NCBI GenBank assembly: GCA_035461305.1
Contig: DATHVN010000157.1
Coordinates: 2,271-66,270 of the forward strand
Reading direction: 5' to 3'
DNA from: Euzebyales bacterium
GTDB taxonomy: Bacteria; Actinomycetota; Nitriliruptoria; Euzebyales; JAHELV01
DNA length: 64,000 bases
The position numbers and the translations under genes were made by a program. How positions within the stretch are numbered: the first letter of the stretch is position 1; every line of letters begins with the position of its first letter. Of this stretch, positions 6,484-64,000 are shown one piece after another. A model generated the notes under the pieces. The model saw only the letters and a program-made list of their open reading frames with translations, did not search any database and was not told where the DNA came from.

Positions 6484-6595
6484 GTGCTCGACTCGATGGG
6501 CCGGCGGCGGATCGTATGGTCGGCACGGGGACCACCGCGCCTTCTGATCTGGTGGTCTATCCGCAGCGCGAGGCCAACAAACTTCGCGGGACCTT

Positions 6596-6745
6596 GTTCC
6601 GCGAACGGCTGGTGGACCGGCTCCGCCGGACAGTGACTCCCGGGGCCTGGTTCCGCGAACGGCTGGAGGACCGGCTCCGCCGGACAGTGACTTCGTGGGC
6701 CCGGTTCGCGCGACCAGAGGAGCGGCTCCGTCGCACACCGACGTC
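6596..6745. repeat. 54-bp tandem repeat, 2 full copies plus 1 degenerate copy
   Basis: Copies at 6596-6649 and 6650-6703 differ at about 5 of 54 positions. A degenerate third copy starts at 6704. Each unit begins GTTCCGCGAAC and contains CCGGC-TCC-GCCGG. Confidence 0.8.
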
Positions 6746-18317: not shown

Positions 18318-18401
18318 CGAGGCTCCTTGGCGCGCCCCCGGTGACTCGCACGGTTGCTGCGAATCCCAAGGGTAGTCGGTTTGACACCGATGCGACACGC
18401 C

Positions 18402-23095: not shown

Positions 23096-23884
23096 GTCTC
23101 CTGCCCCGCCGAGCAGCGCCGCAGGACGATCGTCGCGCTGGTGCGCTCCAAGCCGTTCGTGCGCGTCGCCGACCTGTCGCGCCAGTTCGGCGTGTCCGAG
23201 GTCACCATCGGCGCCGACCTCGAATCGCTCGACGCGGAGGGCCACATCCGTCGCGGGGGCGCCGTCGTCGTCCCGCAGCCACGCCATGAGGTCTCGTACC
23301 TGGAGTCGCTCGGCGAGCATGCCAGGGAGAAGGACGCGACCGGCGCGGTGGCGGCCGCCCTCGTGCTGCCCGGCGAGTCGGTCTTCATCGACGTCGCACC
23401 ACCGCCACCGCGCTGGCACGTGCGCTGTGATCTCGAGGACACCGTGCTGCTGACCAAGCCCTGCCCACCGCGCTGGAGCTCGAGGCCGCGATCCCCGCTT
23501 CACGGTCATCGTCATCGGCGTCACGCTCCGGCCCCTCCAGCACTCGCTGGTCGACCCGCCGGCGCCCGTGCTGCTGGCGCAGCTGCACGTCGACGCGGCC
23601 TTCATCGGGTGCACCGGGACCACGGCCACGGAGGGCATCACGAACATCAACCTCCCGGAGGCCGGGGTGAAGCGCCAGGTCGTGCAGGCGGCGCGACGGA
23701 CCATCGTCATCGCCGACGGCACGAAGGTCGGCTCCGTGTCGCTGGCGCCGGTCTGCCCGACCGACGCCATCGAGCTGCTGGTCGCCGGCTCGTCGGCGCC
23801 GACCGACGAGCTGGACCAGCTCGAGGCCGGGCGCCTGGCGGTCGACGTCGTCGAGCTCGCCGACCGGCCGACCAGCGGGGGTAG
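23096..23884 (+). pseudogene. DeoR-family regulator disrupted by at least four 1-nt frame changes
   Basis: The HTH is intact (RRRTIVALVRSKPFVRVADLSRQFGVSEVTIGADLESL). The sugar-binding domain can only be read by switching frames near 23396, 23428, 23457 and 23496: TTATALARAL / CDLEDTVLLT / ALPTALELEAAIP / RFTVIVIGVTLRP...LLAQLHVDAAFIGCTG. Confidence 0.65.
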
Positions 23885-23971
23885 TGCGCCCCACCTGCTT
23901 GCACCGCCACGCGCCGTCGTCGAGTCTGCTGCCGTGCAGGACCGGCCGCGATCAGCGCGCCGGAGGGAGCC

Positions 23972-27110: not shown

Positions 27111-27120
27111 CTCCCATCGG

Positions 27121-27209
27121 CGTGGCAACCCGCCACGGCATCCCGGCACCAGCCGCCACACACCCACGACCGTGGCAACCCACCACGGCATCCCGGCACC
27201 GGCTGCCAC
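27121..27209. repeat. 39-bp direct repeat x2 (50-bp period) upstream of tRNA-Sec
   Basis: CGTGGCAACCCGCCACGGCATCCCGGCACCAGCCGCCAC (27121-27159) and CGTGGCAACCCACCACGGCATCCCGGCACCGGCTGCCAC (27171-27209). They differ at 4 positions. Confidence 0.8.
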
Positions 27210-27244
27210 GCGGAACGCGTGTGGGCACCGGTAGGGTTGCGGGC

Positions 27245-27337
27245 GGAGGCGTCAGGATTCCTGGTGGGTCCCACGGTCTTCAAAACCGATGAACCGGCGC
27301 CAAGCCGGTTGGCGGGTTCGATTCCCGTTCGCCTCCG
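27245..27337 (+). tRNA. selC: tRNA-Sec (anticodon UCA)
   Basis: GGAGGCG...CGCCUCC acceptor (7 bp plus a U-U pair). 6-bp D-stem GGAUUC/GGGUCC. Anticodon loop CUUCAAA with UCA at 27280-27282. Long variable arm AACCGG-7 nt-CCGGUU. T arm GCGGG-UUCGAUU-CCCGU. Discriminator G; CCA is not encoded. Confidence 0.85.
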
Positions 27338-27448
27338 CGACGACCGCCGGACCGTCCCGGCAACCGCCTCGGAACGACCCGACGGTCCGGCCTGCGTCGC
27401 GGCGCGCGGGACGCACGGCTGCACCGCTCCCCAGCCCCGACCCAGGCG

Positions 27449-35069: not shown

Positions 35070-36088
35070 TTGGGGGCCGACATGGACACGATCCGGAACA
35101 CATGCTGCGTCGCCGGCTGCGGGCCGGCAGGCGCCGTGCTCGGCCTGCTGCTCGCCCGCGCGGGCGTGAACGTCGTCGTGCTCGAGAAGCACGCCGACTT
35201 CCGCCGGATCCCCGACGGCCACACGCTCGGCTTCCTACCACGGTGGGACTTCCTGGACTTCGTCACGCGCCACGCCGAGCGCCTCCCGACGTTCACGCTC
35301 CGCCGGCGCACCGAGGTCACCGGCCTCCTCGGCGACGGTCGCCGGGTCACCGGTGTCCGCGCGCGCACGGCCGACGGCGGGGACGTGGAGGTCGTGGCCG
35401 ACCTGGTGGTCGCGTGTGACGGCCGCGACTCGGTGGCGACGCGTCAGGCCTGCCGCTCGTCGCCCGCGGCGCACCGATCGACGTGCTGTGGTTCCGCCTG
35501 CCACGCGCCGACGGCGATCCTGACAATGCGTTCGGCCGGCTGTCCCGCGGTCAGCTGCGGGTGATGATCGACCGCGGCATGCACTGGCAGGTCGGGTATG
35601 TGATCCCCAAGGACGGCTACGAGGAGGTGCGGACTGGCGGACTGCCGCGGTTCCGCGCGCGCATCGCCGACCTCGCGCCCTTCGTGCGCGGACGTGTTGA
35701 TGCGATCGACGACTGGGACGACATCGCGCTGCTGCGCGTGCAGCTCAACCGCCTGCGCCGGTGGTGGCGGCCGGGCCTGCTGTGCATCGGCGACGCCGCG
35801 CACGCGATGTCGCCGGTCGGTGGCGTCGGCATCAACCTCGCCGTACAGGACGCCGTCGCCGCGGCACGCATCACCGCGGACCCGCTCCGACGGGGCGCGC
35901 TGTCACCCGCGCACCTGGCCCGGGTGCAGCTGCGGCGGGCGCTGCCAACCGTCCTGACCCAGCTGGGACAGCAGATCGTCCACGATCGGGTGCTCGGCCC
36001 ACTGGTCCGCGGCCGCAGTGGCCCCGGCACGCCAGCGCTGATACGCCTCCTGGACCGGTACCCGGCGCTGCGCGCTGTGCCGGCGTAG
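35070..36088 (+). pseudogene. FAD-dependent monooxygenase with a frameshift and a probable internal deletion
   Basis: GxGxxG (CVAGCGPAGAVLGLLLA) lies in ORF 35070..35564. The rest (GAPIDVLWFRLPR...LLCIGDAAHAMSPVGGVGINLAVQDA) lies in ORF 35483..36088, in another frame. The break is near 35450. Confidence 0.65.
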
Positions 36089-50342: not shown

Positions 50343-51866
50343 TCGTCCGGTGGTGGCTGGCCGTCCTCGCGCTCGCAGCGTTGCTGGGTGCGGTCCTCCA
50401 GCCGGCCGCGGTGGCCAGCGCGCGTCCGGTGCCGCTGGACCTGCCGCCCCCGCCGGTGACCCGTCCCCGCGCCACGGCCCGGGCACCCACGCATCCGGGT
50501 CTGGACAACCTGCTGGCGCGCCTGCAGCGCTCCCCCAGACCCGCCCCCGGGGTTCCGTCGCGCTGGCGGTCACCGCCGGTGACGGGGCGATGTTGGCGGA
50601 GTGACGGGCGCGCAGGCCGATGCTGCCCGCCTCGACGCCCAAGCTCGTGACCGCGGCTGCCGGGCTGCGCATCCTCGGCGCGGACCACAGGTTCGTGACC
50701 TGCGTCTACGCGACCCGCGCACCCGACGCGTCCGGCGTCGTCGACGGCGACCTCGTCATCGTCGGCGGCGGCGATCCGGCTTGTCCATCCTGACCTACGG
50801 TAGCCGGGTGAGCATGACCCGACCCGCCACACCGTTGCGCCGCCTGGCCGTGCGCACGGAACGTGGCGGGGTGGCGCGGGTCACCGGCCGGGTGCTCGCC
50901 GACGCGTCGGTCCTGGCCGACGAGCCGCTGGCCGGCGGCTGGCGGAACAGCTATCTGACGAGCCTGAACGCCACACGCGTGTCGGGCCTGACCGTCGATG
51001 CGGGCCTGCGGTTGTTCCGTCGCGACGGGCAGCTGCACGGCGCACAGCCGCCGATCCGGCGCGGAGGACCGCACACGAGCTCGACCGCCTGCTCGACCGA
51101 CGCGGCGTCCGCATCACCGGTGCGCCGGCCGTCGGGCGGCTGCCGCGGGGTGCCGTCGAGGTCGCCCGCATCGCCAGCCCCCCACTGTCGGAGCTGCTCG
51201 CGCACACCCTGCGGTTTAGCGACAACCACCTGGCGGATGGCATCTTCCGCATGCTCGGTGCGGCGATCGGCGACCCCACCTGGGGCGGCAGCGCGGACGC
51301 CGCGCGGGCGGCCCTGGCGGACGTCGGCGTCGCCTGGCGTGGCCTGCGCCTGGCGGACGGCTCGGGCCTGTCCCGCCGCAACCGCCTGTCCGCGAAGGCG
51401 CTGGTGGAGGTGCTCGCGGCCATGGCCGACGGACCGTTGCGCCGTCGGTGGCTGCGGCTGCTGCCCGTCGCGGGCCGGACCGGGACGGTGGCCGGCCGCC
51501 TGACCGGCACACAGGCCCGGTCGGGTGCACGCCAAGACGGGAACGCTGCACGACGTGCGTGCGCTCGCGGCCACCGTGCCCAGTCGCGGCGGGCACGACC
51601 ACCACATCGCCATCCTCGTCAACGAGGTCCCGACCTACGACGACGCTGTCGCCGCCCGACGGCTCGCTGACGTCCTCCCGCTCGCCGTCGTCGCCGCGGA
51701 CGACGGTTGCCTCGGACCGGTCCGCGCCCCAGATGGCACCGACCGCCGGCCGCCCGAGCACCACATCTGCGGGGAGCCGGGACCTACGCGCTCGCGCGCC
51801 ACGGTCGTCACGCGGGCCGTAGGGGAGGGCCTCGACCGCCCTGGAGAACGAGAGAGCCGCAGGTGA
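50339..51866 (+). pseudogene. dacB: D-alanyl-D-alanine carboxypeptidase/endopeptidase (PBP4, DacB) with four frameshifts and one in-frame stop
   Basis: Signal peptide VIVRWWLAVLALAALLG. The SxxK motif PASTPKLVTAAAGL follows a TGA at 50602-50604. Frame changes lie near 50550, 50783, 51060 and 51520. The terminal HAKTGTL (KTG) motif is in ORF 51525..51866. Confidence 0.7.
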
Positions 51867-52923: not shown

Positions 52924-53035
52924 CCGACCCTGCTGGTGCGGGCGTTTGGGCGCACCGCCGGGTCGCAACGATGACTCGGTAGGACGCGCTCCCGGGGCGT
53001 CGCACGAGCACACGCATGAGCAGAACGGACGCAAC

Positions 53036-54007
53036 GTGCAGCGGATGGCGGTCCTCACGAGCGGCGGAGACGCGCCGGGCATGAATGCGGCGATCCGTGC
53101 AGTCGTCCGGTCAGCGGACGCCCGCGGCGTCGAGGTCTACGGCGTCCACCGGGGGTTCGAGGGCCTCATCGACGGACGCATGACGTTCCTGAGCGCCCGC
53201 AGCGTGTCCGGCATCCTGCACCTCGGTGGCACGATGCTCGGCTCGGCACGGTCGGAGCGGTTCCTGACCGTCGAGGGACGGCGCAAAGCCATCCGGCAGC
53301 TCGAGGCCCACCAGATCGAGGGGCTGATCATCATCGGCGGCGACGGCTCGTTCCGCGGCGCGGATGCGTTGTCGCGCGAGAGCGGGATCGCCGTCGTCGG
53401 CGTGCCGGGCACGATCGACAACGACCTGTCGGGGTCCGACTTCACGCTCGGCTTCGACACCGCGGTCAACACCGCGCTCGAGGCAATCGACCGCCTCCGC
53501 GACACCGCGGCCAGTCATCAGCGGGCGTTCTTCATCGAGGTCATGGGCCGGGCCAGCGGGTGGATCGCACTGTGCTCGGCGATCGCCGGCGGCGCGACCG
53601 AGGTGCTGGTGCCCGAGCGCCCGACCGACATCGACGAGCTGCAGGACCGCATCCATCAGGCGTTCGCGATGGGCAAGCAGTACTGCCTCGTGGTCGTCGC
53701 CGAGGGTGACGACGCGGGCGGCGCCTTCGAGGTCGCACAACGGTGCGGCGAGGGGCTCTCCACGCTGAGCCACCGCGTGACGACGCTCGGACACGTGCAA
53801 CGCGGCGGCCCCCCGTCGATGCGTGACCGCATCCTCGCCGCCCGGCTGGGTGACGCCGCCGTCTCGGCGTTGCTCGACGGCGAGGACCGGGTGATGGTCG
53901 GCGAGATCCACATGGAGCTTGTGCGCATGCCGCTCGAGGAGGCCTGGAGCACCGTGCACCACATGCCTGCGGACCTGCTGGACCTCATGGACCGCCTGGC
54001 ACGCTGA
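53036..54007 (+). CDS. pfkA: ATP-dependent 6-phosphofructokinase
   Basis: VLTSGGDAPGMNAAIR, IGGDGS, VGVPGTIDND, MGR and HVQRGG. The start is GTG 53036 or ATG 53045. Confidence 0.9.
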   Translation: MQRMAVLTSGGDAPGMNAAIRAVVRSADARGVEVYGVHRGFEGLIDGRMTFLSARSVSGILHLGGTMLGSARSERFLTVEGRRKAIRQLEAHQIEGLIIIGGDGSFRGADALSRESGIAVVGVPGTIDNDLSGSDFTLGFDTAVNTALEAIDRLRDTAASHQRAFFIEVMGRASGWIALCSAIAGGATEVLVPERPTDIDELQDRIHQAFAMGKQYCLVVVAEGDDAGGAFEVAQRCGEGLSTLSHRVTTLGHVQRGGPPSMRDRILAARLGDAAVSALLDGEDRVMVGEIHMELVRMPLEEAWSTVHHMPADLLDLMDRLAR

Positions 54008-54027
54008 CGGTGCGGCGAGCGGCGCGC

Positions 54028-54597
54028 TCATCTGGAGAGAGCTTCGAGCCGCGCCTCGAGATCGGCACGCGGGACCGCGCCCAGGACCCGTTCACCGGTG
54101 CCCGCCTCGGCGTCGATGAAGAACCATGCGGGCTGGGCGACCACACCGAACTGCCGCCAGACCTCGCCGTCGACGTCAGCGATGGTGACCATGTCCTCCA
54201 GGCCGTGGCGCGCCACGAAGTCCTGCATGGCCGGGGGCTGGTCCCGGCTCGCGACGCCGATGATCTCGACCCTGTGGTCGTACTGTTGCACCACCTGTGC
54301 AACCTCGGGAGCCTCCCGATTGCACGTCGTTCACCAGGGCGCCCAGAACCAGAGCGCGAGGTCGTCCCCGGCATACTCGGCACCGTCGAGGCTCGTGCCG
54401 TCCACGAGCGTCACGGTGCCGAACGGCGCGGCGGGACCCGCCGACGGTCCGTCCGTGCCGACAGGTTCCGACCGCACCGTGCCGGCGGAGCCTGCGCTGC
54501 CGGTGCTGGACCCGTCGACGGTCGTGTCGACCGTCGCCGACCCCCCGCAGCCGGCCACGAACGCCCCGACGACCAGGAGCAACAGCACTCTTCGCAC
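54028..54597 (-). CDS. TlpA/ResA-like thiol:disulfide oxidoreductase lipoprotein with in-frame UGA (candidate selenocysteine, U-T-T-C active site)
   Basis: ORFs 54331..54684 and 54028..54294 share one frame. The TGA at 54333-54331 sits where the first Cys of W-C-x-x-C belongs (LALWFWAPW-TGA-TTCNREAPEV...). Lipoprotein signal VRRVLLLLVVGAFVAG|C runs from GTG 54597. A SECIS-like hairpin follows the TGA. Confidence 0.7.
54297..54325 (-). promoter_or_regulatory. SECIS-like mRNA hairpin 5 nt downstream of the in-frame UGA
   Basis: mRNA GUGCAA-UCGGG-(AGGCU)-CCCGA-GG-UUGCAC: 11-12 bp with a GG bulge. The G-containing apical loop lies about 20 nt from the UGA. Confidence 0.55.
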
Positions 54598-54677
54598 GTC
54601 CCCAAGGATATCGACCCGCTGGACCCACCGTGCCGAGCGGGACCGGAACCCTGAGGAGCGCGCCCTGGGGCCTCCCG

Positions 54678-54706
54678 TTGACACTGACTGACCGGTCGGT
54701 TAGTCT
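54678..54706 (+). promoter_or_regulatory. paaA promoter with overlapping PaaR-type operator
   Basis: TTGACA (54678-54683), 17 nt, TAGTCT (54701-54706). Inverted repeat ACTGACCGGTCGGTTAGT at 54687-54704. Confidence 0.6.
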
Positions 54707-54738
54707 CGTTCTCAGTCGCCGTGTGGGGAGCCCGACCG

Positions 54739-55677
54739 ATGAGCAGAGGCAGCCTGTCCAACGACGAGATGCGGGAGCGCATCGCCGCCGGACGCCTGGT
54801 CGAGGGCGTCGAGCACGCGTCGGAGGACTACCTCAAGGCGCTCGAGCGGACGCTGATCGTCTCCGCGGACACCGAGCTCATCAGCGCCCCCTCGTACCTG
54901 GGCGCGGCCTCCGCCGCCCCGAACGCGTCCAGCTACATGTCGATCGTCTCGATCATCCAGGACGAGGTCGGGCATGCCCACATCGCCTACCGCATGCTGC
55001 GCGACCTTGGCGTCGACGTCGACGAGCTCGTCTACGGGCGTCAGCCCCACGAGTTCAAGCACCCCTACGCCTTCGACGTGCCACTCGAGACCTGGCCCGA
55101 GATGATCGTGGCCAACGCGTTCTACGACCGTGCCGGCTTCGTGCTGCTGTCCGACGTGTTCGAGCACACGACGTTCGCGCCATGGAAGCGGGCGCTGGTC
55201 AAGGTCGACCGCGAGGAGACGTTCCACCTCCGCCACGGCGAGCGGTGGATCGCCAAGCTCTCGCGGGACGACGACGCGAAGCGCAGCATCCAGCAAGCTA
55301 TGGACTGGATGTTCATCCTCACGCTGGAGTGGTTCGGTCTGCCCGACGCGTTGAAGCGCCACACCGACCAGGTCGGCTACAGGCTGAAGGGCAAGACCAA
55401 CGACGAGCTGCGCCAGACGTGGATGTCTGCGGTCGTGCCGTTCTGCATCGAGCACGGCTTCGACGTGCCCGCCCACTTCGACGCCGAGGCGGACCGGTAC
55501 GTGATCGACTGCGCCTTCCCGATGGACTTCGACCCCGAGGCCAAGCAGTGGGACCACGCGAAGGGCGAGATCACCTGGGAGGAGGTCATGACCCGGTGGC
55601 GTGGCCGAGGCCCGGCCAACGAGCGGTTCGTCCGGCAGCTCCAGCGCGGCGTCGACCAGCTGTCGCGGGCGGCGTAG
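54739..55677 (+). CDS. paaA: 1,2-phenylacetyl-CoA epoxidase subunit A-like di-iron oxygenase
   Basis: ATG 54739 (GGGGAG RBS). Di-iron ligand motifs QDEVGHAHIAY and DREETFHLRHGERW. Confidence 0.85.
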   Translation: MSRGSLSNDEMRERIAAGRLVEGVEHASEDYLKALERTLIVSADTELISAPSYLGAASAAPNASSYMSIVSIIQDEVGHAHIAYRMLRDLGVDVDELVYGRQPHEFKHPYAFDVPLETWPEMIVANAFYDRAGFVLLSDVFEHTTFAPWKRALVKVDREETFHLRHGERWIAKLSRDDDAKRSIQQAMDWMFILTLEWFGLPDALKRHTDQVGYRLKGKTNDELRQTWMSAVVPFCIEHGFDVPAHFDAEADRYVIDCAFPMDFDPEAKQWDHAKGEITWEEVMTRWRGRGPANERFVRQLQRGVDQLSRAA

Positions 55678-55680
55678 GCG

Positions 55681-56034
55681 ATGACGGCGGACATGCTGCG
55701 TGACCGGGCGGTCGGGCACTGCGACGGATCGGTCGACCGCCCCACAGTGTGGTCCGCGCTCGAACGGGTCGAGGATCCCGAACTACCGCTTTCGATCGTG
55801 GATCTTGGCCTGGTCCGCCGCCTCGACATCGCGGACGGCGTGGTGGTCGTGGGGCTGACCTACACGTCGCTGGCGTGCCCGTGCGTCGAGATGATCCGCG
55901 AGGACGTCGAGGCGGCGGTCCGCACGGTGTCCGGCGTGCGGTCCGTGCGAGTCGACGACGTCCTCGAACCGTGGTCGCGCAACGACGTGACGCCCGAGGG
56001 ACGCGAGCTGCTGCGCGCCGTGGCGGTGGTCTGA
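55681..56034 (+). CDS. paaD: PaaD/PaaJ-like DUF59 domain protein (N-terminal module only)
   Basis: VWSALERVEDPELPLSIVDLGLVRRLDI...TYTSLACPCVEMIRED. It lacks the C-terminal Cys4 ribbon normally present. Confidence 0.75.
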   Translation: MTADMLRDRAVGHCDGSVDRPTVWSALERVEDPELPLSIVDLGLVRRLDIADGVVVVGLTYTSLACPCVEMIREDVEAAVRTVSGVRSVRVDDVLEPWSRNDVTPEGRELLRAVAVV

Positions 56035-56035
56035 G

Positions 56036-56245
56036 ATGGCGCTGCCAGGGCACGAGGGGATGCGCGCCTACGAGGTGTATGTCCGTCACGACAAGGAGCC
56101 GCAGCTGCACCAGGGGGGCGAGGTCCAGGCGCACAACGACGACGACGCGGTGATCTTCGCCCACACGCTGTACGACGAGCGCCGCTGGCAGGACATGTTC
56201 GTGGTACCCGCGTCCGCCGTTGTCCGCCTGATCGAGCCGGAGTAG
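56036..56245 (+). CDS. paaB: 1,2-phenylacetyl-CoA epoxidase subunit B
   Basis: 69 aa, YEVYVRHDKEPQLHQGGEVQAHNDDDAVIFAHTLYDERRWQDMFVVPASAV. Confidence 0.75.
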   Translation: MALPGHEGMRAYEVYVRHDKEPQLHQGGEVQAHNDDDAVIFAHTLYDERRWQDMFVVPASAVVRLIEPE

Positions 56246-56248
56246 CCA

Positions 56249-56581
56249 ATGGAGTACCTGGTGTTCGGCAGGACCGAGTACGCCGAGCCGCTCGCGCTGG
56301 TCACCACCGTCGAGGCCGCGTCCACGCCGACTGTCGACTACCTGGGCATCGGCGGCGACTGGCTCGAGCTGACGCTCGTGCCTGCCGACGAGATCATCTG
56401 GATCCTGCGCGACGGCGTACCGGTCGGCGGCGATCTGAGGGTGCGGGCGAGCGCCAGCGAGCCGGAGGGCGGGGACCCCAGGGTGCGGGCGAGCGCCAGC
56501 GAGCCGGAGGGCGGGGACCCCAGGGTGCGGGCGAGCGCCAGCGAGCCGGAGGGCGGGGACCAGAGAGAGGCGCTGGCATGA
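56249..56581 (+). CDS. PaaB-like paralogue with a repetitive C-terminal extension
   Basis: EYLVFGRTEYAEPLALVTTVEA...WLELTLVPADEIIWI follows the PaaB pattern. The tail is 3 x (D)xRVRASASEPEGG. The stop overlaps the paaC start (ATGA). Confidence 0.45.
   Translation: MEYLVFGRTEYAEPLALVTTVEAASTPTVDYLGIGGDWLELTLVPADEIIWILRDGVPVGGDLRVRASASEPEGGDPRVRASASEPEGGDPRVRASASEPEGGDQREALA
56432..56557. repeat. 42-bp in-frame tandem repeat x3
   Basis: Copies at 56432-56473, 56474-56515 and 56516-56557. Copies 2 and 3 are identical and copy 1 differs at 3 positions. Confidence 0.9.
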
Positions 56582-57339
56582 CGTCGCCGTACGCCGAGGC
56601 CACCCGCGAGGCCGCGGTCGACGACGGGATCGCCAACCTGATCGGGGTCGTGGCTGACAACAAGTACCACCTGGGGCGCTGGTTGTCGCAGTGGGCGGTG
56701 GGTGCACCCGGCCTCGAGAGCGCGGTTGCCGCGGCGGGCATCGCCCAAGGCCATTTGGGACAGGCCCGCGCGCTGTACCCACTGGTCGACGAGCTGATCG
56801 CCGGCGGGTTCGGCCGTCCCGACGAGGGCCGGACGCGCCGCTACAACATGTCCGCGCTCGACGACCCGTTCGAGACGTGGGCGCAGGCGGTCGCCACGAT
56901 GTTCCTGGTCGATCCCGCACTCGACGTCGTGCTGCGTGCGCTGCACCCACCGTTGGAGGACCAGTCGCGCCGGCTGGACCGTGTGCTCGACGAGTCGCGC
57001 TTCAACATCGAGTTCGCCCGCGGCCGTCTGGTGGAGCTGACCCGACGGTGGGAGCACGGGCGCAGCCACCTGACCGGCCCGCTCGCGTCCGTGCTGCCCG
57101 AAGTGCTGTGCTGGTTCGGGCCCGCTGACGAGGAGGGAGTGCGCATCCTGCGGGAGGCGGGCGTGCTGTCGGCCGACGGCGCGGGCATGCGCAATGCGTA
57201 CCTCGACATCGTCGCCCCCGTGCTGCTCGAGCTCGACTACCACGTCGGTGTGTCGGGGCGACCCGGCGACTGGACCTACGAGGAGCTGCCGTGGCAGGAC
57301 TGGAACCCGCTCCAGCGCCGCCTGGAGACGACGGACTGA
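56578..57339 (+). CDS. paaC: 1,2-phenylacetyl-CoA epoxidase subunit C
   Basis: 253 aa. LIGVVADNKYHLGRWLSQW...GIAQGHLGQARALY is the PaaC/PaaI-type ferritin-like pattern. Confidence 0.8.
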   Translation: MTSPYAEATREAAVDDGIANLIGVVADNKYHLGRWLSQWAVGAPGLESAVAAAGIAQGHLGQARALYPLVDELIAGGFGRPDEGRTRRYNMSALDDPFETWAQAVATMFLVDPALDVVLRALHPPLEDQSRRLDRVLDESRFNIEFARGRLVELTRRWEHGRSHLTGPLASVLPEVLCWFGPADEEGVRILREAGVLSADGAGMRNAYLDIVAPVLLELDYHVGVSGRPGDWTYEELPWQDWNPLQRRLETTD

Positions 57340-57494
57340 CCTGCCCCTGGTGTGGCTCGGGCGACGTCGAGGAGATCGCGGCGTACGGCTCGCTGCTCAT
57401 GACCGCGCAGTGGTACTGCAACGCGTGCCACAGCCCGTTCGAGCGGGTCCGCCACCGTGGCGCCGCCGACCGGGGGTCGCACGACGATGGGTGA
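57291..57494 (+). CDS. Stand-alone Cys4 zinc-ribbon equivalent to the PaaD C-terminus
   Basis: LTCPWCGSGDVEEIAAYGSLLMTAQWYCNACHSPFERV. The only ATG (57291) overlaps paaC by 49 nt, so the start is uncertain. Confidence 0.55.
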   Translation: MAGLEPAPAPPGDDGLTCPWCGSGDVEEIAAYGSLLMTAQWYCNACHSPFERVRHRGAADRGSHDDG

Positions 57495-58263
57495 ACCACT
57501 GCGCATCCACACCGAGGACGCGGCCCGGTGGATCACGCTCGACCGGCCGGAGGTCCGCAACGCCCTCGACGTTGCCACGGGGGACGCGCTGGCCGCGGCG
57601 CTGATCGAGGCCGCGACCGACCACGACGTGCACGCGATCGTGCTGACCGGCACCGACCCCGCGTTCTCCGCCGGCGGCGACCTCGACCGGTTCGACGAGA
57701 CCGACCACACGGCGTTCCGGTTCGCCAGCCACGAGCTCACGCAGGTCATCGGCCTCGCCGAGCGGATCGAGAAGCCGGTGGTCGCCGCGATCAACGGAGT
57801 CACCACGGGTGCCGGTGCGCAGCTGGCGCTCGCGTGCGACGTGCGGATCGCATCGCACCGGGCCCGCCTGCTGTGGCGCGAGGGGTACCTGGGCCTGCTG
57901 CCCAGCCACGGCGGCATCGCCCGTCTGGTCCAGCTGATCGGCCTGGGCCGGGCGCGCGACCTCGTGCTGGGTGGCTACGAGCTCGACGCCGCGGACGCGC
58001 ACCGGTTCGGCCTGGTCAGCGAGGTCGTCGCCCACGATGTGCTACACGATCGCGTCCGGGCGCGTCTGGCCCTGATCGCGCGCCGCAGCCCTGACGCGTA
58101 CGCCGTGACCAAGCGCGTGCTTGGGGCGGTTGGCGGCCTGCCCCTGGCGACCGGACAGGCGATCGAGACGCTCGGGCAGAGCCTGCTGGTGGGCACCGAC
58201 GAGTTCGCCGACCGGCTGGAACGCGCCCGCGAACGCCGGTCAGGCGGCGCCGAGCAGGCGTAG
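57487..58263 (+). CDS. Enoyl-CoA hydratase/isomerase family protein
   Basis: ITLDRPEVRNALD...TGTDPAFSAGGDL...AAINGVTTGAGAQLALACDVRIA. Confidence 0.85.
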   Translation: MGEPLRIHTEDAARWITLDRPEVRNALDVATGDALAAALIEAATDHDVHAIVLTGTDPAFSAGGDLDRFDETDHTAFRFASHELTQVIGLAERIEKPVVAAINGVTTGAGAQLALACDVRIASHRARLLWREGYLGLLPSHGGIARLVQLIGLGRARDLVLGGYELDAADAHRFGLVSEVVAHDVLHDRVRARLALIARRSPDAYAVTKRVLGAVGGLPLATGQAIETLGQSLLVGTDEFADRLERARERRSGGAEQA

Positions 58264-58845
58264 CAGCCCGGCCTCGCAGCGGGCCCGGTAATGCTGGTGG
58301 GTGGTCCGCCAGTCGTCCTGCAGCCACGTGAGCAGCGTGCCCTCGATGTAGGCACGCATGGCTGCGGCCGCGTCGTCGACGCCATCGACGTCGAAGGCAC
58401 CCCGCGCGACCCCCTCGGCGATGATCTCGGCATACAGGCCGTTGATGATCTCGTTGGTGACGGCCGACAGCTCGCCGAACGACGGCACCCGAGCGGCGTG
58501 CTCGACGAGGTCGAGGTACACCAGCGTGAACTCGTGGTTGCGCTCCGGGTCGACGAAGATCGCCTCGACCAGCGCTGCCACGGCCTCCGTCGGCTCGGAC
58601 GTCGCGGCCAGGCGAGCGCGAATGCGGTCGGCGGTGCGCACGAGCGCCCAGCGCATGGTCGTCAGGAACAGCCGGTCCTTCGACTTGAAGTGGTACAGCA
58701 CGAGGCCCTTGCTGACACCCGCCTCGTCGGCGATGTCCTGCAGCGACAGCCGGTGGCCACCCTGGCGGGACATCACCTTGTAGGCGCTGCGCACCAGCGC
58801 CTCCTCGCGCGGCGACAGCTCCGGGACGACCTCCGCTGCACTCAT
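58240..58845 (-). CDS. paaR: TetR-family regulator, probable PaaR
   Basis: ATG 58845. HTH LSLQDIADEAGVSKGLVLYHFKSKDRLF. It sits within the paa-like cluster, which carries three matching palindromic operators. Confidence 0.8.
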   Translation of the reverse strand: MSAAEVVPELSPREEALVRSAYKVMSRQGGHRLSLQDIADEAGVSKGLVLYHFKSKDRLFLTTMRWALVRTADRIRARLAATSEPTEAVAALVEAIFVDPERNHEFTLVYLDLVEHAARVPSFGELSAVTNEIINGLYAEIIAEGVARGAFDVDGVDDAAAAMRAYIEGTLLTWLQDDWRTTHQHYRARCEAGLLRLLGAA

Positions 58846-58975
58846 GACGTGCGCCTTCCTGTGGCACGCGCAGCGTGCCTGGTCGCGTTGGTTCGCGAGG
58901 CGAGATGGCCCCATCCGCGGTGGGTCGGTCGAGGATCCGGGCACACGCCGTAGAGGGGACCGCCGCTGCCAGCAC

Positions 58976-59746
58976 TCATGCGCCCTCGTAGGCCGGGCGG
59001 CGCTTCTCGGTGAACGCCGTCATGCCCTCGTGCGCGTCGGCGGTCCCGAACAGCGGCGCCAGTTGCTGGAGCTCGCGCTGCAGTCCCTCGGCGAGCGGTA
59101 GGTCGACACCGTCGTGCACGGCCCGCTTGACGGCCGCCATCGCGAGGGGGGCGCCGGCCGCCAGCGTGCCGGCCAACTCGCCGACGACGTCGTCGATGTC
59201 GTGGGCCCGCACCAGGCGGTCGACCATGCCGAGCGCGTGCGCCTCGGCCGGGTCGACCGCGCGGCCGGTCAGCATGACGTCAAGCGCACGCCCCCGACCG
59301 ATCAGGCGTGGCAGCCGCTGGGTGCCCCCGGTCCCCGGCAGCAGCCCCAGGGTGACCTCGGGGAGGCCGATGCGGTAGCCGCCCTCTGCGGCGACGCGGA
59401 TGTCACACGCGAGCGCGATCTCGTAGCCGCCGCCGAGCGCGTGGCCCGCGATCTGGGCGATGAAGACGGGCGCCTCCGCGGCGAAGCGGTCGAAGACCTC
59501 ATGGGCGCGACGGACCATCGCGTTGTTCGCGTCCGCGTCGCGATCCAGGAAGCCCTTGACGTCGGCCCCTGCGGAGAAGAAGCGCTCGTTGGCCGAGGCG
59601 ACGACCGCGACGGGGGCGTGCTCGGCGACGACGACCCCGATGGCGTCGTCGAGCTCGTCGAGGAACGCGGGGTCGTAGCTGTTCGCCGGCGGCCGGTCCA
59701 GCGTGATTCGGCCGATGCCGTCCTCGACCGCTGCGGTCACTGCCAT
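58976..59746 (-). CDS. Enoyl-CoA hydratase/isomerase family protein
   Basis: ATG 59746 (GGAGG RBS). ITLDRPPANS...FFSAGADVKGF...AQIAGHALGGGYEIALACDIRVA. Confidence 0.85.
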   Translation of the reverse strand: MAVTAAVEDGIGRITLDRPPANSYDPAFLDELDDAIGVVVAEHAPVAVVASANERFFSAGADVKGFLDRDADANNAMVRRAHEVFDRFAAEAPVFIAQIAGHALGGGYEIALACDIRVAAEGGYRIGLPEVTLGLLPGTGGTQRLPRLIGRGRALDVMLTGRAVDPAEAHALGMVDRLVRAHDIDDVVGELAGTLAAGAPLAMAAVKRAVHDGVDLPLAEGLQRELQQLAPLFGTADAHEGMTAFTEKRRPAYEGA

Positions 59747-59760
59747 GCGCGCCTCCTCGC

Positions 59761-61200
59761 CTACGTCAGACCGCCGACGACGACGGACTTGGTCTCGACG
59801 TACTCCTCGAGCGCCTCGAGTCCGTGCTCCTTGCCGAGCCCGCTCATCTTGGTGCCGCCGAACGGCAACTCGTCGTAGCCGTAGTGCAGCTGGTTGACCC
59901 AGGTCACGCCAGCCTCCAGGTCGCGCATCGCGCGGTCGATCGCCGCCGCGTCGGTCGTCCAGATCGACGACCCCAGGCCGTAGGTGGTGTCGTTGGCGCG
60001 CGTGATCGCCTGGTCGAGGTCGTCGACGCGCCACACCGGCAGGACCGGTCCGAACACCTCCTCGGTCGCCAGCCGCGAGTCCGTGGGCGCGTCGACGACG
60101 ACGGCGGGCTGGAAGAAGCTGCCCGGCCCGTCGATGGCCTCGCCGCCCACCAGGACCTTCGCACCCCGGTCGACCGCGTCGGCGAGCTGCGCGACGAGCA
60201 CGTCGCGCTGCGCCGCCGTGTGCAGCGGCCCGATCGGCAGCTTGGGCTTCTCGGGCTTGGCGGTGCCGGGACCCGGCTCGTACCGGCCGACGCGCGCGAC
60301 GAACTGGTCGAGGAAGTCGTCGTAGACATCGGTGTGGATGAACGCCCGCTTCGGCGCCAGGCACGCCTGCCCACAGTTCCAGTAGCGGCCGATCTGGATC
60401 ATCTTGATCGCGCTGTCCAGGTCGGCATCGGGCAGGACGATCGTGGGATCCGAGCCACCCAGCTCGAGGCTGACGTGCTTGAGCGCAGGCCCGGCGGTCT
60501 CCATGATCCGCTGCCCGGTCGCGGTCTGGCCGGTGAAGGCGATGCGCCTCACGTCGGGGTGGGCCACGAGCGCGGACCCCGTGTCCGGGCCACCGGTCAC
60601 CACGTTGAACACCCCCGCCGGCAGACCGGCGTCGGCGCTGAGCTCGGCGACCTGCAGCGTGGTGAGCGGCGTCGTCTGCGCGGGCTTGGCCACAACCGTG
60701 TTGCCGGCGGCCAGTGCGGGGCCCAGCTTGTTGGCCAGCAGGGTCAGCGGGAAGTTCCACGGGATGATCGCGCCGACGACGCCCAACGGCCGGCGGACGA
60801 TCAGACCGTAGGCACGGCCGAACTGGCTGGGCAGGTCCTGGTAGCTGCCGCGGACCTTGGTCGCAGCCTCGGCGTAGTAGCGGAGGCCGGCGATGAAGTG
60901 GGCGAACTCGCCGTTGGCCTCGAGGATCGGCTTGCCCTGCTCCGCGACGAGGCTGGACACCAGCTCGGAGCGATGCTCCTGGAGTCGGTCGGCGAACGAC
61001 CGGAGGAGGCCGGCGCGTTCGGTGGCGTCCGTCGCGCGCCAGGTCGCCGAGGCCTCCCGCGCCGCGCGCACGGCGCGATCCACGCCGTCGGCACCGGCTT
61101 CGGGCACCTCGTCGATCGGCTCATCGGTCGCGGGATCGGCAACGGTCAGACGACCGCCGTCACCCTCGGCGTGCTCGCCTGCGATCCACATGTCAGCCAC
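59761..61200 (-). CDS. NAD(P)-dependent aldehyde dehydrogenase
   Basis: GTG 61200 (AAGGAG 6 nt upstream). FPLTLLANKLGPALAAGNTVV, catalytic LELGGSDP and NCGQAC, and EEVFGPV. Confidence 0.9.
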   Translation of the reverse strand: MADMWIAGEHAEGDGGRLTVADPATDEPIDEVPEAGADGVDRAVRAAREASATWRATDATERAGLLRSFADRLQEHRSELVSSLVAEQGKPILEANGEFAHFIAGLRYYAEAATKVRGSYQDLPSQFGRAYGLIVRRPLGVVGAIIPWNFPLTLLANKLGPALAAGNTVVAKPAQTTPLTTLQVAELSADAGLPAGVFNVVTGGPDTGSALVAHPDVRRIAFTGQTATGQRIMETAGPALKHVSLELGGSDPTIVLPDADLDSAIKMIQIGRYWNCGQACLAPKRAFIHTDVYDDFLDQFVARVGRYEPGPGTAKPEKPKLPIGPLHTAAQRDVLVAQLADAVDRGAKVLVGGEAIDGPGSFFQPAVVVDAPTDSRLATEEVFGPVLPVWRVDDLDQAITRANDTTYGLGSSIWTTDAAAIDRAMRDLEAGVTWVNQLHYGYDELPFGGTKMSGLGKEHGLEALEEYVETKSVVVGGLT

Positions 61201-61374
61201 GTCGAACTCCTTCGTCAGATGCCGGACGGCGGGCGTCGCGGAGGCCGGTCGCGCTCGCCCCCGACACCTGCGCCCGGTCCGGTCGTCGACCCGGACACCT
61301 GTATCGATCTCCCCGGGCCCTCGGACATCGATCGCCTGCAGGACGGGAGTTCCGTGGGACCAGGCCCCACGAAG

Positions 61375-61403
61375 CATAACTGACTGACCGGTCGGTCTGT
61401 CAA
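61375..61403 (-). promoter_or_regulatory. Second PaaR-type operator with a -35 box, upstream of the aldehyde dehydrogenase gene
   Basis: Plus strand ACTGACCGGTCGGTCTGT at 61383-61400. Minus strand TTGACA at 61403-61398. It overlaps the thioesterase stop codon. Confidence 0.55.
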
Positions 61404-61804
61404 GGCACGTCCACCGCCACGCCGTCGGCCAGCGCCCGTGCGACCGGCGGGGGCCAGGGGCAGGCGCGGCCGTCACCGTCGATGAAGACCACCACGACGC
61501 GGGCAGTCGCGATCAGCGTGTCGCTCGACGCCAGGCGCGCCTCGTAGGTCGCCGACGTCCGCCCGACGCGGGCGACCTCCAGCGTGATCGCGGCCGGCCG
61601 GTCGAAGTGCAGCGGCGCGAAGAACTCCGCTTCGAGGCGACGGCGCGGCGTGTAGCCGAACGTGACGTCGACGATGCCGAGATCGCGGTGCAGCTGCGCC
61701 TCCGCCGCCTCGACGAAGCGCCACAGCGTGCTGTGGTGCCAGTAGCCGGCGGCATCCGTGTCGATCCACTCCAGCTGACGTTCGAGCGTGACCGTCGCAC
61801 CCAC
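61400..61804 (-). CDS. Acyl-CoA thioesterase (4HBT/YbgC-type hotdog fold)
   Basis: 134 aa. VTLERQLEWIDTDAAGYWHHSTLWRFVEAAE has the catalytic Asp-type N-terminal motif. Confidence 0.75.
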   Translation of the reverse strand: MGATVTLERQLEWIDTDAAGYWHHSTLWRFVEAAEAQLHRDLGIVDVTFGYTPRRRLEAEFFAPLHFDRPAAITLEVARVGRTSATYEARLASSDTLIATARVVVVFIDGDGRACPWPPPVARALADGVAVDVP

Positions 61805-61820
61805 GTCGCTCCCCGATGTC

Positions 61821-61848
61821 TTGACACCCCTGACTGACCGGTTAGTCT
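61821..61848 (+). promoter_or_regulatory. Third PaaR-type operator and promoter, upstream of the CoA ligase gene
   Basis: TTGACA (61821-61826), 16 nt, TAGTCT (61843-61848). Shortened palindrome ACTGACCGGTTAGT at 61833-61846. Confidence 0.55.
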
Positions 61849-61905
61849 ACGCGACACCCGCCACCGGGACGCATCCCGGTGCCCGGCGGCGGCTGGAGGG
61901 CCGTC

Positions 61906-63441
61906 ATGGATCCGCACCGCAACATCAGCCTGCTCACCGACCGCAACCTCGACGCCGGCCGTGCCGACAAGACCGCCCTCATCACGGGCGACGGTGGCCA
62001 TGTCACCTTCGCCGAGGTGCACGCACTGGCCTCGAGGTTCGCCGCCCGCCTGCGTGACCGCGGCGTCCAGCGCGAGCAGCGCATCGTGCTCGTCATGGAC
62101 GACACCCCCCGCTTCCACGCGGCGTTCCTGGGCAGCATCCGCGCCGGCGTGATCCCGGTGCCGCTCAACTTCCTCGCCCGAGCGTCGGATTTCGCCTACG
62201 CCATGTCCGACGCGTACGCGGCGCTCGCGGTCTCCGACGCCGCGTTCCTGGACAAGGTCGGACCGGAGGCCGAGCGCCTGGGCGTGCCCGTGCTGATCGG
62301 CGGCAGCCACGACGCCGACCCCGAGGACTCGGTCGACGCGTGGATCGCCGACGGTACGGACCACGTGGACCCGCTCACCAGCCACCCCGACGACCCGGCG
62401 TTCTGGCTGTACTCGTCGGGCTCGACGGGGCGGCCCAAGGGCGTCGTGCACCTCCAGCACGACCTCGCGGTCACCTGCGAGCGGTACGCGGTGGGCGTCC
62501 TCCACCTGTCGTCGAAGGACCGCGTGTTCTCGACCACGAAGCTGTTCCACGCCTACGGGCTGGGCAACGGGCTGTCGTTCCCGCTGTACGTCGGTGCAAC
62601 GGCCGTGCAGATGACCGGACGCCCGACGCCCGACAAGGCGCTGGCCACGATCGAGGCGCACCGGCCGACCGTGCTGTTCTCCGTCCCCGCGCTGTACAAC
62701 GCGATGCTCGCCCACCCCGACGTCGACACACGCGACCTGTCGAGCGTGCGGCTTGGCGCGTCGGCCGCCGAGGCACTACCGGCCGACGTGTGGCGTCGTT
62801 GGCACGACCGCACCGGCACGGAGATCCTCGACGGCATCGGCTCGACCGAGATGCTCCACATCTACTGCTCGAACCGGCCAGGACAGGTGCGACCAGGCTC
62901 GTCGGGCACACCGGTGCCCGGCTACGAACTGCAGCTGCGCGACCCGGACGTCGTCGGTGGGGTCCTGGAGGGCGAGGCGGAGGGCGAGCTGTGGGTCAGC
63001 GGCGCGAGCGCGCTGGCGTACTACTGGCACAACGACGCCAAGACCCGCCGCGCGCTGCAGGGCCGGTGGTTCTTCTCGGGCGACCGCTACCGGCGGGATG
63101 CCGACGGGTGCTACTGGTACGAGGGCCGGGCCGATGACATGATCAAGGTCAAGGGTCTGTGGGTCAGCCCCATCGAGATCGAGAACCGCCTGATCGAGCA
63201 CGAGGCGGTGCGTGAGGCGGCGGTCGTCGGCGTCCCCCACGACGGGCTCACGACCATCGTGGCTCACGTGATCCTGGCCGAGGGCCACGAAGGTGACGAC
63301 GAGCTGAGCACCCAGCTGCAGGACTGGTGCAAGGCGGAGCTGCTGCGCTACCAGTACCCGCACCGGATCCACTACGTCGACGACCTGCCACGGACCGCCA
63401 CCGGCAAGGTGCAGCGCTTCAAGCTGCGCGCGGACGCCTGA
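61906..63441 (+). CDS. Benzoate-CoA ligase-family aromatic acid CoA ligase
   Basis: ATG 61906 (GGAGGG RBS). AMP-binding motifs WLYSSGSTGRPKGV, YGLGN, SGDRY and PRTATGKVQRFKLR. Confidence 0.85.
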   Translation: MDPHRNISLLTDRNLDAGRADKTALITGDGGHVTFAEVHALASRFAARLRDRGVQREQRIVLVMDDTPRFHAAFLGSIRAGVIPVPLNFLARASDFAYAMSDAYAALAVSDAAFLDKVGPEAERLGVPVLIGGSHDADPEDSVDAWIADGTDHVDPLTSHPDDPAFWLYSSGSTGRPKGVVHLQHDLAVTCERYAVGVLHLSSKDRVFSTTKLFHAYGLGNGLSFPLYVGATAVQMTGRPTPDKALATIEAHRPTVLFSVPALYNAMLAHPDVDTRDLSSVRLGASAAEALPADVWRRWHDRTGTEILDGIGSTEMLHIYCSNRPGQVRPGSSGTPVPGYELQLRDPDVVGGVLEGEAEGELWVSGASALAYYWHNDAKTRRALQGRWFFSGDRYRRDADGCYWYEGRADDMIKVKGLWVSPIEIENRLIEHEAVREAAVVGVPHDGLTTIVAHVILAEGHEGDDELSTQLQDWCKAELLRYQYPHRIHYVDDLPRTATGKVQRFKLRADA

Positions 63442-63451
63442 CGGCCGCCGC

Positions 63452-64000
63452 ATGCTCGACGGGATCACGGTCGTCGACGTCCACCAGCACATCGTGTCCG
63501 TCGGCTCGTTGAAGATGCCGTGGGACGAGTGGGCGCCGCCGCACCTCACCGGCCTGCGTCGCGACGAGATCTACCGCCCCGACGGCACCGTCGACCCTCA
63601 GCGCTACGTCGCGCACCTCGACGACCAGGGCATCGACGTCGCGCTGCTGATGGCCGAGTACAGCCCGCGGGTCACCGGGCTGCAGACCATCGAGGACATG
63701 GTGCCGCTCCGCGACGCCGCACCCGACCGCGTGGTTCTGATCGCCGCCCTCAACCCGCACCTGCACTTTCCTGCGCAGGCCGAGCTGGACCGCCAGCTCG
63801 GCCTCGGCGCAGTCGCGCTGAAGCTCCATCCCGTACACGGCGACTACGCGGTCGACCGCCGTGACCTGTACCCGGTGTACGCGCGATGCCGTGATGCCGG
63901 CGTGCCCGTCGTCGTCCACTGCGGCACCAGCAACTTCGCTGGCGCCACGAACATCCGCGCGGATCCGGCCCCGCTGCTCAACGTGGTGCGCGACTTCCCG
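63452..64000 (+). CDS. Amidohydrolase-2 (ACMSD-like) family protein, 3' end outside the window
   Basis: Not in the ORF track because it has no stop in the window. My translation from ATG 63452 is MLDGITVVDVHQHIVS...ALKLHPVHGDY...VVVHCGTS, open to base 64000. Confidence 0.7.
   Translation, partial: MLDGITVVDVHQHIVSVGSLKMPWDEWAPPHLTGLRRDEIYRPDGTVDPQRYVAHLDDQGIDVALLMAEYSPRVTGLQTIEDMVPLRDAAPDRVVLIAALNPHLHFPAQAELDRQLGLGAVALKLHPVHGDYAVDRRDLYPVYARCRDAGVPVVVHCGTSNFAGATNIRADPAPLLNVVRDFP

Follow-up and report, generated by a model that had tools for sequence, protein, structure and literature searches.

Introduction

DsbF (Rv1677, structure 3IOS) and DsbE/MPT53 (Rv2878c, 1LU4) of Mycobacterium tuberculosis are exported actinobacterial single-domain proteins of the thioredoxin fold with an extra N-terminal β-hairpin; in vitro both bring about the oxidative folding of hirudin and do not reduce insulin, and DsbD (Rv2874) or Rv2877c has been proposed as their membrane partner (PMC3853704). 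ResA of Bacillus subtilis, TlpA of Bradyrhizobium and DsbE/CcmG of Gram-negative bacteria are likewise membrane-anchored extracytoplasmic thioredoxin-fold proteins with a CxxC motif, which serve as reductants for the maturation of cytochrome c or Cu centres and are tied to CcdA/DsbD. In addition, selenoproteins of the thioredoxin, redoxin or TlpA fold with a UxxC motif, in which selenocysteine (Sec, U) stands for the first Cys, have been predicted since 2004-2008 (PMC1794560, PMC1088965, PMC2398784). This article deals with a minus-strand gene at 54597-54028 of a 64,000-nucleotide stretch of DNA, hereafter the window, from an Euzebyales bacterium (contig DATHVN010000157.1). With a probability of roughly 0.9, as judged from sequence, it is a real selenoprotein gene overlooked by the callers of open reading frames (ORFs), and its in-frame UGA (54333-54331) is almost certainly read as selenocysteine, which would give one exported, membrane-anchored thiol-disulfide enzyme.

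The predicted UxxC families include the "Prx-like thiol:disulfide oxidoreductase" and the "thiol:disulfide interchange protein" (PMC1794560), a "thiol-disulfide isomerase-like protein" from the Sargasso Sea (PMC1088965) and "Prx-like 3" (pfam08534) from the Global Ocean Sampling data (PMC2398784), and Table 1 of a 2026 review contains all those families together with a "UGC-containing TlpA family" and a "Redoxin family protein" (PMC13188914). They share the thioredoxin/redoxin fold and Sec in place of the first Cys with the protein described here and were also found computationally in metagenomes or genomes; the comparison was made with their descriptions. An original prediction, made on this DNA from the letters alone, had called thioredoxin-fold UxxC proteins a known selenoprotein class, and this holds (PMC1088965, PMC2398784, PMC13188914). 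The same prediction knew of no characterised exported actinobacterial TlpA-like example; the closest characterised Cys proteins turn out to be M. tuberculosis DsbF and DsbE. The novelty is below what had been implied, because TlpA/redoxin UxxC families had already been predicted and DsbF/DsbE are exported actinobacterial proteins. A redoxin-type UxxC selenoprotein is of a kind already predicted, and the window gene adds a well-supported member to it. In the literature on the predicted UxxC families, neither a lipoprotein clade in Nitriliruptoria/Acidimicrobiia nor a link to DsbE/DsbF was found, and the full-text literature gave nothing that joins a selenoprotein with Nitriliruptor or DsbF with selenocysteine; a preprint on Actinomarina describes Sec machinery and unnamed selenoprotein families in another order of the Acidimicrobiia. 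The present account is possibly the first explicit link of redoxin-type UxxC selenoproteins to the DsbE/DsbF lineage.

The Gene and Its Read-Through Product

Two minus-strand ORFs, 54331..54684 and 54028..54294, lie in one frame and are separated by the TGA at 54333-54331 and 12 sense codons. Read through, the minus strand from 54597 to 54028 is one gene of 189 codons with the TGA as codon 89. The GTG at 54597 begins the reading frame VRRVLLLLVVGAFVAGC, in which that TGA is the sole internal stop; the product runs ...LALWFWAPW-*-TTCNREAPEVAQVVQQYDHRVEIIGV... and terminates at TGA 54030-54028 (minus), and, written out further past the same TGA, it reads ...LALWFWAPW-*-TTCNREAPEVAQ...AQPAWFFID.... 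The common frame, the TGA, the 12 sense codons and the read-through sequence were all verified as the original prediction had given them. The features concerned are as follows.

54028..54597, minus strand: complete putative selenoprotein gene, 189 sense codons including Sec89, stop TGA 54030-54028; now called as two ORFs
54331..54333, minus strand: UGA codon 89, predicted Sec at the N-terminal nucleophilic position of U-T-T-C, from alignment with Cys homologues
54322..54324, minus strand: TGC codon 92, resolving Cys of UxxC; Cys is encoded in 75/75 loci
54547..54597, minus strand: signal peptide and lipobox, V-R-R-V-L-L-L-L-V-V-G-A-F-V-A-G-C; GTG start 54597, predicted lipidated Cys17 at 54549-54547
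54427..54546, minus strand: Gly/Ser/Thr/Ala/Pro low-complexity linker, codons 18-57, between lipid anchor and domain
54031..54426, minus strand: thioredoxin-fold domain of the DsbE/DsbF/ResA/TlpA type, codons 58-189, from Pfam, NCBIfam and PDB matches
54305..54319, minus strand: hairpin H1, U-CGGGA / GGC / UCCCG-A, from covariation and RNAalifold
54285..54303, minus strand: hairpin H2, GUUGCAC / AGGUG / GUGCAAC, from covariation and RNAalifold
54605..54610, minus strand: TATCCT, -10-like hexamer, 7 nt upstream of the GTG start; recurs in relatives
27245..27338, plus strand: tRNA-Sec gene (selC), anticodon UCA, from ARAGORN and Rfam RF01852

With Cys placed at the TGA, the protein scores 58.0 bits against AhpC-TSA (PF00578, cut-off 26) and 55.6 bits against Redoxin (PF08534, cut-off 26.6), that is, above both Pfam gathering thresholds, and together with the motif U-T-T-C this makes it a member of the redoxin family. 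Residues 64-188 align by HMMER to the whole domain of M. tuberculosis DsbF (3IOS) with E = 7e-29, query positions 7-131 against chain positions 26-148, and the alignment is unbroken across both called halves. The claim that neither half is a viable domain is upheld, since the DsbF alignment needs both. DsbE/MPT53 (1LU4) is the second-best match among solved structures (E = 1e-22), and ResA, CycY and DsbE/CcmG score lower. The contexts of the active site in DsbF and DsbE, LWFWAPW-C-PTC, are nearly identical to that of the window protein; the mycobacterial proteins carry Cys at the first position, whereas the window protein would carry Sec. Full-length similarity, the active-site context WFWAPW and the export signal are therefore all of the DsbE/DsbF type. 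Although ResA, TlpA and DsbE/CcmG are clear sequence matches, the equivalog cut-offs of NCBIfam are missed (ResA NF002854, 64.3 vs 170; DsbE TIGR00385, 44.7 vs 123; TlpA NF047696, 23 vs 230), so that the window protein is, by its sequence, related to these named subfamilies but lies outside them. NF041054, the ResA-like WAxxUGC or UGC-containing TlpA family selenoprotein, is likewise ResA/TlpA-like and is recognised by the annotation rules of NCBI, but it has a U-G-C motif and a model of 354 positions, whereas the window protein has U-T-T-C and another architecture; the window protein scores 19.9 bits where 300 are needed and thus falls outside this family.

The N-terminus has the traits of a lipoprotein, namely a V-R-R n-region, an LLLLVVGAF h-region and the lipobox V-A-G-C, from which lipidation is predicted. 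The signal is a trait of the family: 66 of 70 loci have a run of hydrophobic residues with [AGS]-C behind it and then a low-complexity linker, and the linker differs in length and sequence among the relatives, yet is present in every one. The lipoprotein start at GTG 54597 and the TATCCT at 54610-54605, both proposed originally, are confirmed. The distance from the start codon to the lipobox Cys is exactly 16 codons in the window and in seven relatives; the locus L010 starts one codon further upstream (an adjacent ATG), and the start of L007 was not recovered. Furthermore, a TANNNT hexamer ends 6-9 nt before the conserved GTG/ATG start in the window and in eight relatives (all nine), the hexamers of these eight being TATCCT, TATCGT, TAGCAT, TAGAGT or TACAGT. 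No evident Shine-Dalgarno sequence lies upstream of the start in these nine; a scan of 53950-54760 for sigma-70 and terminator consensus sequences reported nothing, and the -10-like hexamer is backed by its conservation only. This arrangement suggests a leaderless or near-leaderless mRNA, and the proposal of a leaderless mRNA gains support from the eight relatives.

Conservation of the UGA Codon

A species-level scan with one genome per species gave 69 loci, and six metagenome loci bring the total to 75. The genome scan used the patterns [LI]ALWFWAP and xTCNREAPx, which flank the redox site and exclude the redox codon itself. TGA stands at the aligned codon in 72 of the 75 loci, that is, in all six metagenome loci and in 66/69 of the species-level genome loci, the latter figure being that of the motif class and not of all DsbE/F-like proteins because the scan used site-flanking peptide patterns; TGC takes its place in L017, L018 and L022 only. 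Nitriliruptorales, Euzebyales, Egibacteraceae and many Acidimicrobiia, among them Ilumatobacteraceae, are represented, so that the TGA-bearing loci belong to two actinobacterial classes, Nitriliruptoria and Acidimicrobiia, and their amino-acid identity ranges from 86% down to 33%. The redox motif of the family is WFWAP[WGYHT]-U-x-x-C. Opposite the UGA at 54333-54331, the alignments place the first Cys of the CPTC motif of DsbF and DsbE and the first Cys of the Cys homologues P0001, P0002, P0016 and P0019. In codon 92, T10 and G11 are invariant in alignments A3 (23 sequences of the clade of the window, used for covariation) and A5, and C12 in A3 varies only to synonymous TGT.

The same split is found in databases. 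In P0022, P0023 and P0030, which a protein search found at 71-74% identity, the gene calls all stop at ...LALWFWAPW, and on the contigs of these homologues an N-terminal ORF is followed by 36 nt and then by an ORF of 88 residues; the gene is cut in two by gene callers in 6/6 database contigs with gene calls that were examined. L001 and L004 share the full synteny of the window, with paaA divergent upstream and PFK convergent downstream, and the shorter contigs of relatives keep it in part only. The TGA is also present in L078, which was assembled independently from a metagenome and represents almost the same strain; the 616 nt that align, spanning the gene, contain a single substitution.

Identity between the window and L078 is 99.8% without gaps over 56462-64000 and 97.7% with four gaps over 53034-56519. 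The stretch of lower identity contains PFK, the selenoprotein gene and paaA, and the differences sit in the neighbours of the gene because the gene itself differs by one base over 616 nt.

Seven contigs of metagenome-assembled genomes (MAGs) from lakes, L026, L033, L036, L048, L053, L057 and L062, carry the gene of the freshwater clade under names such as 'Bifidobacterium breve', 'Ferrithrix thermotolerans DSM 19514' and 'Acidimicrobium ferrooxidans DSM 10331'. These names look like mislabels because the sequences cluster with Ilumatobacteraceae (acIV) loci.

RNA Hairpins Downstream of the UGA

The minimal SECIS (selenocysteine insertion sequence) of fdhF in Escherichia coli is a hairpin in the coding region just past the UGA, with a spacing of 11 nt and a G-containing GGUC apical loop. 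In the window, the minimum-energy fold of a 71-nt segment has -32.8 kcal/mol (z = -3.4), a stability that none of 200 shuffles attains. From the second codon past the UGA, 45 nt are near-invariant in the four closest sequences (alignment positions 271-315); only 1/13 conserved codons varies synonymously there, as against 36/68 elsewhere in the domain (Fisher p = 0.0024). Moreover, A or T is the last base in 5 of the first 15 codons past the UGA, compared with 9% of codons in the genes of the window (binomial p = 0.008). These five, AAT, GCT, GTT, GCA and CAA, each make up 2-7% of their synonymous family in the genes of the window, and the A/T third base of each (with the neighbouring base in GTT and CAA) is located in a stem.

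Alignment A3 contains two conserved hairpins. H1 (columns 15-20 with 24-29) pairs in 84% of cells, and its pair 15-29 alternates between U-A and C-G. H2 (columns 31-37 with 43-49) pairs in 95.7% of cells, has compensatory double changes in 4/7 pairs and has a loop in which A38, G39 and U41 (A-G-N-U) are invariant. Jointly, 90.3% of cells pair, compared with 31-47% in slid controls; double changes occur in six pairs, the observed score is reached by 0/500 shuffles, and RNAalifold finds both hairpins unguided. H1 starts 11 nt past the UGA and the two span 11-49 nt past it. With the U of the UGA as the starting point, the loop of H1 occupies +21 to +23 and that of H2 +38 to +42; this distance, with G in both apical loops, agrees with the bacterial model of a SECIS. 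A covariance model built from the A3 hairpins has its sole match in the window at 54268-54333 (84 bits), the next-best scoring 14 bits.

The original prediction had proposed one hairpin, GUGCAA-UCGGG-AGGCU-CCCGA-GG-UUGCAC at 54325-54297. This hairpin does belong to the minimum-energy fold of the 71-nt segment and its inner part, H1, is conserved, but its outer stem GUGCAA/UUGCAC (columns 9-14 with 32-37), which pairs in 80% of cells, has zero compensatory double changes. The outer stem can form in the window but fails where columns 33 and 35 vary, and it was rejected as a conserved partner: columns 47, 45 and 44 are the ones with which 33, 35 and 36 covary, its 3' arm thus covarying within H2. 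A single-hairpin account overlooks H2, yet H2 covaries most strongly.

H1 has the spacing of the minimal fdhF element, and the H2 loop AGGUG as well as the GGUC loop of a second clade resemble the fdhF loop; the clade of the window has two adjacent conserved hairpins, whereas fdhF has one. Either H1, with the fdhF spacing, or H2, with stronger covariation and an invariant loop, may be the element bound by SelB. The second clade, mostly Ilumatobacteraceae, has a different hairpin placed elsewhere, with an invariant CCUC/GAGG stem and a GGUC loop at columns 30-33, extended by the pair 24-39 with six pair types; the recoding signal of this sister clade may be a relocated one.

Selenocysteine Forms and Cysteine Forms

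The hairpins were compared between forms with TGA and homologues with Cys. In the Sec forms, H1 has on average 5.0/6 positions paired (about -7 to -10 kcal/mol) and H2 6.7/7 (-8.4 to -12.9 kcal/mol), and the window has 6/6 and 7/7 pairs, respectively. In the Cys homologues L079, L080, L018 and L022, on the other hand, H1 has 1-3/6 pairs (about -1 kcal/mol) and H2 1-4/7; L079, a syntenic Cys orthologue, has the same C-N-R-E-A-P peptide in other codons and lacks the hairpins. L017, a Cys form nearly identical to the Sec form L020, keeps H1, and its H2 is weakened by one substitution (6/7 pairs, -6.3 vs -11.2 kcal/mol). Consequently, none of the five Cys homologues has H2 at full strength, and four of them lack both hairpins. 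H1 and H2 travel with the UGA, as is expected of a SECIS, because Sec forms pair and Cys homologues largely do not. The two comparisons proposed at the outset, of TGA and hairpin with compensatory changes among relatives and of the protein with Cys-containing homologues, have thus come out in favour of selenocysteine: TGA in 72/75 loci with double changes in six pairs, and a UGA aligned with the first Cys, the hairpins being absent from 4/5 Cys forms.

L017 and L020 are a sister pair of Acidimicrobiia MAGs with two base differences in the 66 nt from the redox codon: TGC against TGA, and the substitution that breaks one H2 pair in the Cys form. By its sequence, L017 looks like a natural Sec-to-Cys reversion caught early.

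Translation beyond the UGA

Over the 84 codons past the hairpin region, pairwise ratios of nonsynonymous to synonymous substitution rates (dN/dS) among the window and five close relatives are 0.15-0.32 at dS 0.36-1.1, values that indicate purifying selection on the protein encoded beyond the hairpins. Conservation in frame extends to the 12 codons between the called ORFs, one of which encodes the invariant resolving Cys. Of 70 loci examined, 52, that of the window among them, have TGA as the terminator of the gene itself, and UGA remains a stop codon in these lineages because most of these genes end at it. A scan of the window for other in-frame TGA codons with flanking coding signal gave only the target, ordinary gene ends and antisense shadows. 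The central claim of the original prediction, a UxxC selenoprotein of the TlpA/ResA type that is a lipoprotein and is split by ORF callers, is therefore supported by the conserved UGA, the hairpins and purifying selection.

Selenocysteine Machinery in the Window

SelB and selC count as the hallmarks by which the Sec-decoding trait is recognised (PMC1273633). The tRNA-Sec gene that had been noticed in the window is real: ARAGORN finds it at 27245-27338 (+), and Rfam RF01852 matches it over its full length with 70 bits against a gathering score of 47. This selC, which would supply the tRNA required for decoding the UGA of the gene, is solitary and lies between a gene for an AlkZ-like glycosylase and a gene for a membrane protein.

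Just upstream of selC, 27115-27210 contains two imperfect direct-repeat copies of about 40 nt (cgtggcaaccc[g/a]ccacggcatcccggcacc...gccac).

Alternative Explanations

Several observations count against a functional selenoprotein gene. Among the ORFs of the 64-kb window that have a coding signal and a length of at least about 300 aa, Pfam found no selA, selB or selD, and the three E. coli proteins, used as tblastn queries, had no match in the window or in 663 kb of loci from relatives. At E ≤ 10 on 54230-54360 and at gathering score on the whole window, no SECIS family of Rfam was matched, which is weak evidence because the Rfam models do not cover bacterial SECIS in general. The TGA count of 66/69 belongs to the class with the flanking motif rather than to every DsbE/F-like protein, and several genes in the window are disrupted, such as a peptidase of family S13 in four pieces and a gamma-glutamyltranspeptidase in two frames, by either genome decay or assembly indel errors. 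Such gene damage and the missing selA/selB/selD would suit a relic, in which the UGA and the hairpins are ancestral and functional in relatives, and the loss of the Sec genes here has left a truncated lipoprotein stub of 88 residues. A relic is unlikely, however, since the tRNA-Sec is intact (70 bits), the gene has neither a frameshift nor a second stop and forms all 6/6 pairs of H1 and 7/7 of H2, dN/dS is 0.20-0.28 in the comparisons that include the lineage of the window, and the second assembly of the same species (L078) has an identical 3' half. The failure to find selB in the window and 663 kb of related loci could also be explained by recoding without selenocysteine, that is, near-cognate insertion of Trp or Cys or a lineage-wide reassignment of UGA, with the hairpins as stimulators of read-through. 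This is a good deal more improbable still: TGA terminates the same genes in 52/70 loci, so that UGA is still a stop, the UGA stands exactly at the catalytic Cys, as is characteristic of Sec/Cys pairs (PMC1794560), and a tRNA-Sec gene is present.

The two remaining alternatives have next to no probability. An ordinary pseudogene by a recent TGC-to-TGA nonsense mutation, which the original prediction had named as the competing explanation, needs only one base change and disrupted genes do lie nearby, but a strain-specific mutation is excluded because the TGA is common to relatives down to 33% identity and to a second assembly; TGA at the same codon in 72/75 loci of two actinobacterial classes, purifying selection downstream and covarying hairpins specific to the UGA-bearing forms all speak against it. 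Two separate products, a lipoprotein of 88 N-terminal residues and a protein of 88 C-terminal residues from GTG 54294, are exactly what gene callers predict, but neither half spans the fold, which the DsbF alignment crosses unbroken, and the 12 intervening codons with the resolving Cys are conserved in frame. An independent downstream protein is further disfavoured because the called start of the second ORF, GTG 54294, is UUG or UUC (Leu or Phe) in 10/23 sequences of the clade.

Proposed Function

For the selenoprotein, the following course of events may be proposed. At the UGA (54333-54331), the hairpins would recruit SelB-GTP with Sec-tRNA(Sec) from selC to the ribosome, and selenocysteine would be inserted. 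The signal sequence and homology suggest that the prelipoprotein is exported and lipidated on Cys17 and that the linker of about 40 residues tethers the domain to the outer face of the membrane. By homology, the selenenylsulfide/selenol-thiol couple of Sec89-x-x-Cys92 would exchange disulfides with envelope or secreted proteins, and its main role may be oxidation, as is that of Mt-DsbE and Mt-DsbF in vitro, or reduction, as is that of ResA/TlpA.

Clustering of neighbouring genes over 70 loci revealed no conserved redox-partner gene nearby in any clade; partners of the DsbD Rv2874/Rv2877c type are absent from the conserved neighbour clusters, and neither CcdA/DsbD nor genes for the maturation of cytochrome c or Cu centres were found near the gene. 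In Nitriliruptoria the gene is accompanied by PFK and paaA, in the freshwater clade by lpd/E2 and trkA.

Other Observations in the Window

The S13 peptidase, a D-Ala-D-Ala carboxypeptidase at 50530-51779 (+), is in four pieces by tblastn, in frames 1, 3, 2 and 3. It is intact in L001 (481 aa), the first ~63 residues are unmatched in the window copy, and the latter is either a pseudogene or the result of assembly indel errors. The gamma-glutamyltranspeptidase extends at 23884-25798 (+) over two overlapping ORFs in different frames, 23884-25308 matching Pfam profile positions 68-280 and 24944-25798 positions 290-510, and the profile of G + C content at third codon positions (GC3) shifts frame there. 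At 35070-36088 (+), a gene like those of FAD-dependent monooxygenases is apparently split into the ORFs 35070-35564 and 35483-36088 in different frames, as judged from the translations.

Tandem repeats are also present. A perfect 42-nt repeat at 56438-56561 (3.0 copies, 100% match) lies within 56249-56581, a small ORF that belongs to the paa cluster; the counterpart in L078 has 96 aa vs 110, and the copy number of this repeat varies between strains because the L078 ORF is shorter and the alignment breaks at the repeat. A 30-nt unit at 17686-17808 (4.1 copies, 93% match) is in the Pro/Arg/Ser-rich tail of ORF 17604-18398 (minus), and a 54-nt unit occurs in 2.3 copies at 6587-6713.

Significance

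A redoxin-type UxxC selenoprotein is little surprise to a specialist. For annotation, one recoding rule would repair dozens of genomes that now carry two meaningless ORFs, and the covarying hairpins are a clean alignment for a SECIS model of high-GC Actinomycetota, which is missing from Rfam. In addition, a natural Sec version of an exported Dsb-type enzyme offers a direct comparison of Sec and Cys with DsbE/DsbF, and the family holds natural Sec-to-Cys reversions in which the hairpins decay.

A wider reading is put forward here only tentatively, as one that is rather doubtful when taken as a whole: an undescribed, deeply conserved clade of Sec-containing lipoproteins of the DsbE/DsbF type in Nitriliruptoria and Acidimicrobiia, including the abundant freshwater Ilumatobacteraceae, in which the SECIS was rebuilt within one family and the enzyme is re-oxidised directly. 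If this is true, the two-hairpin signal and the relocated GGUC-loop hairpin of the sister clade would mean that a SECIS has been rebuilt inside one orthologous family, and a selenol/thiol enzyme on the cell surface that lacks a redox-partner gene of its own in the neighbourhood could have oxygen or small oxidants restore its oxidised state directly, which would be a different mode of extracytoplasmic disulfide chemistry in aerobic Actinomycetota. The gene itself implies a selenium requirement in aerobic lineages of the Actinomycetota, some of which are abundant in lakes.

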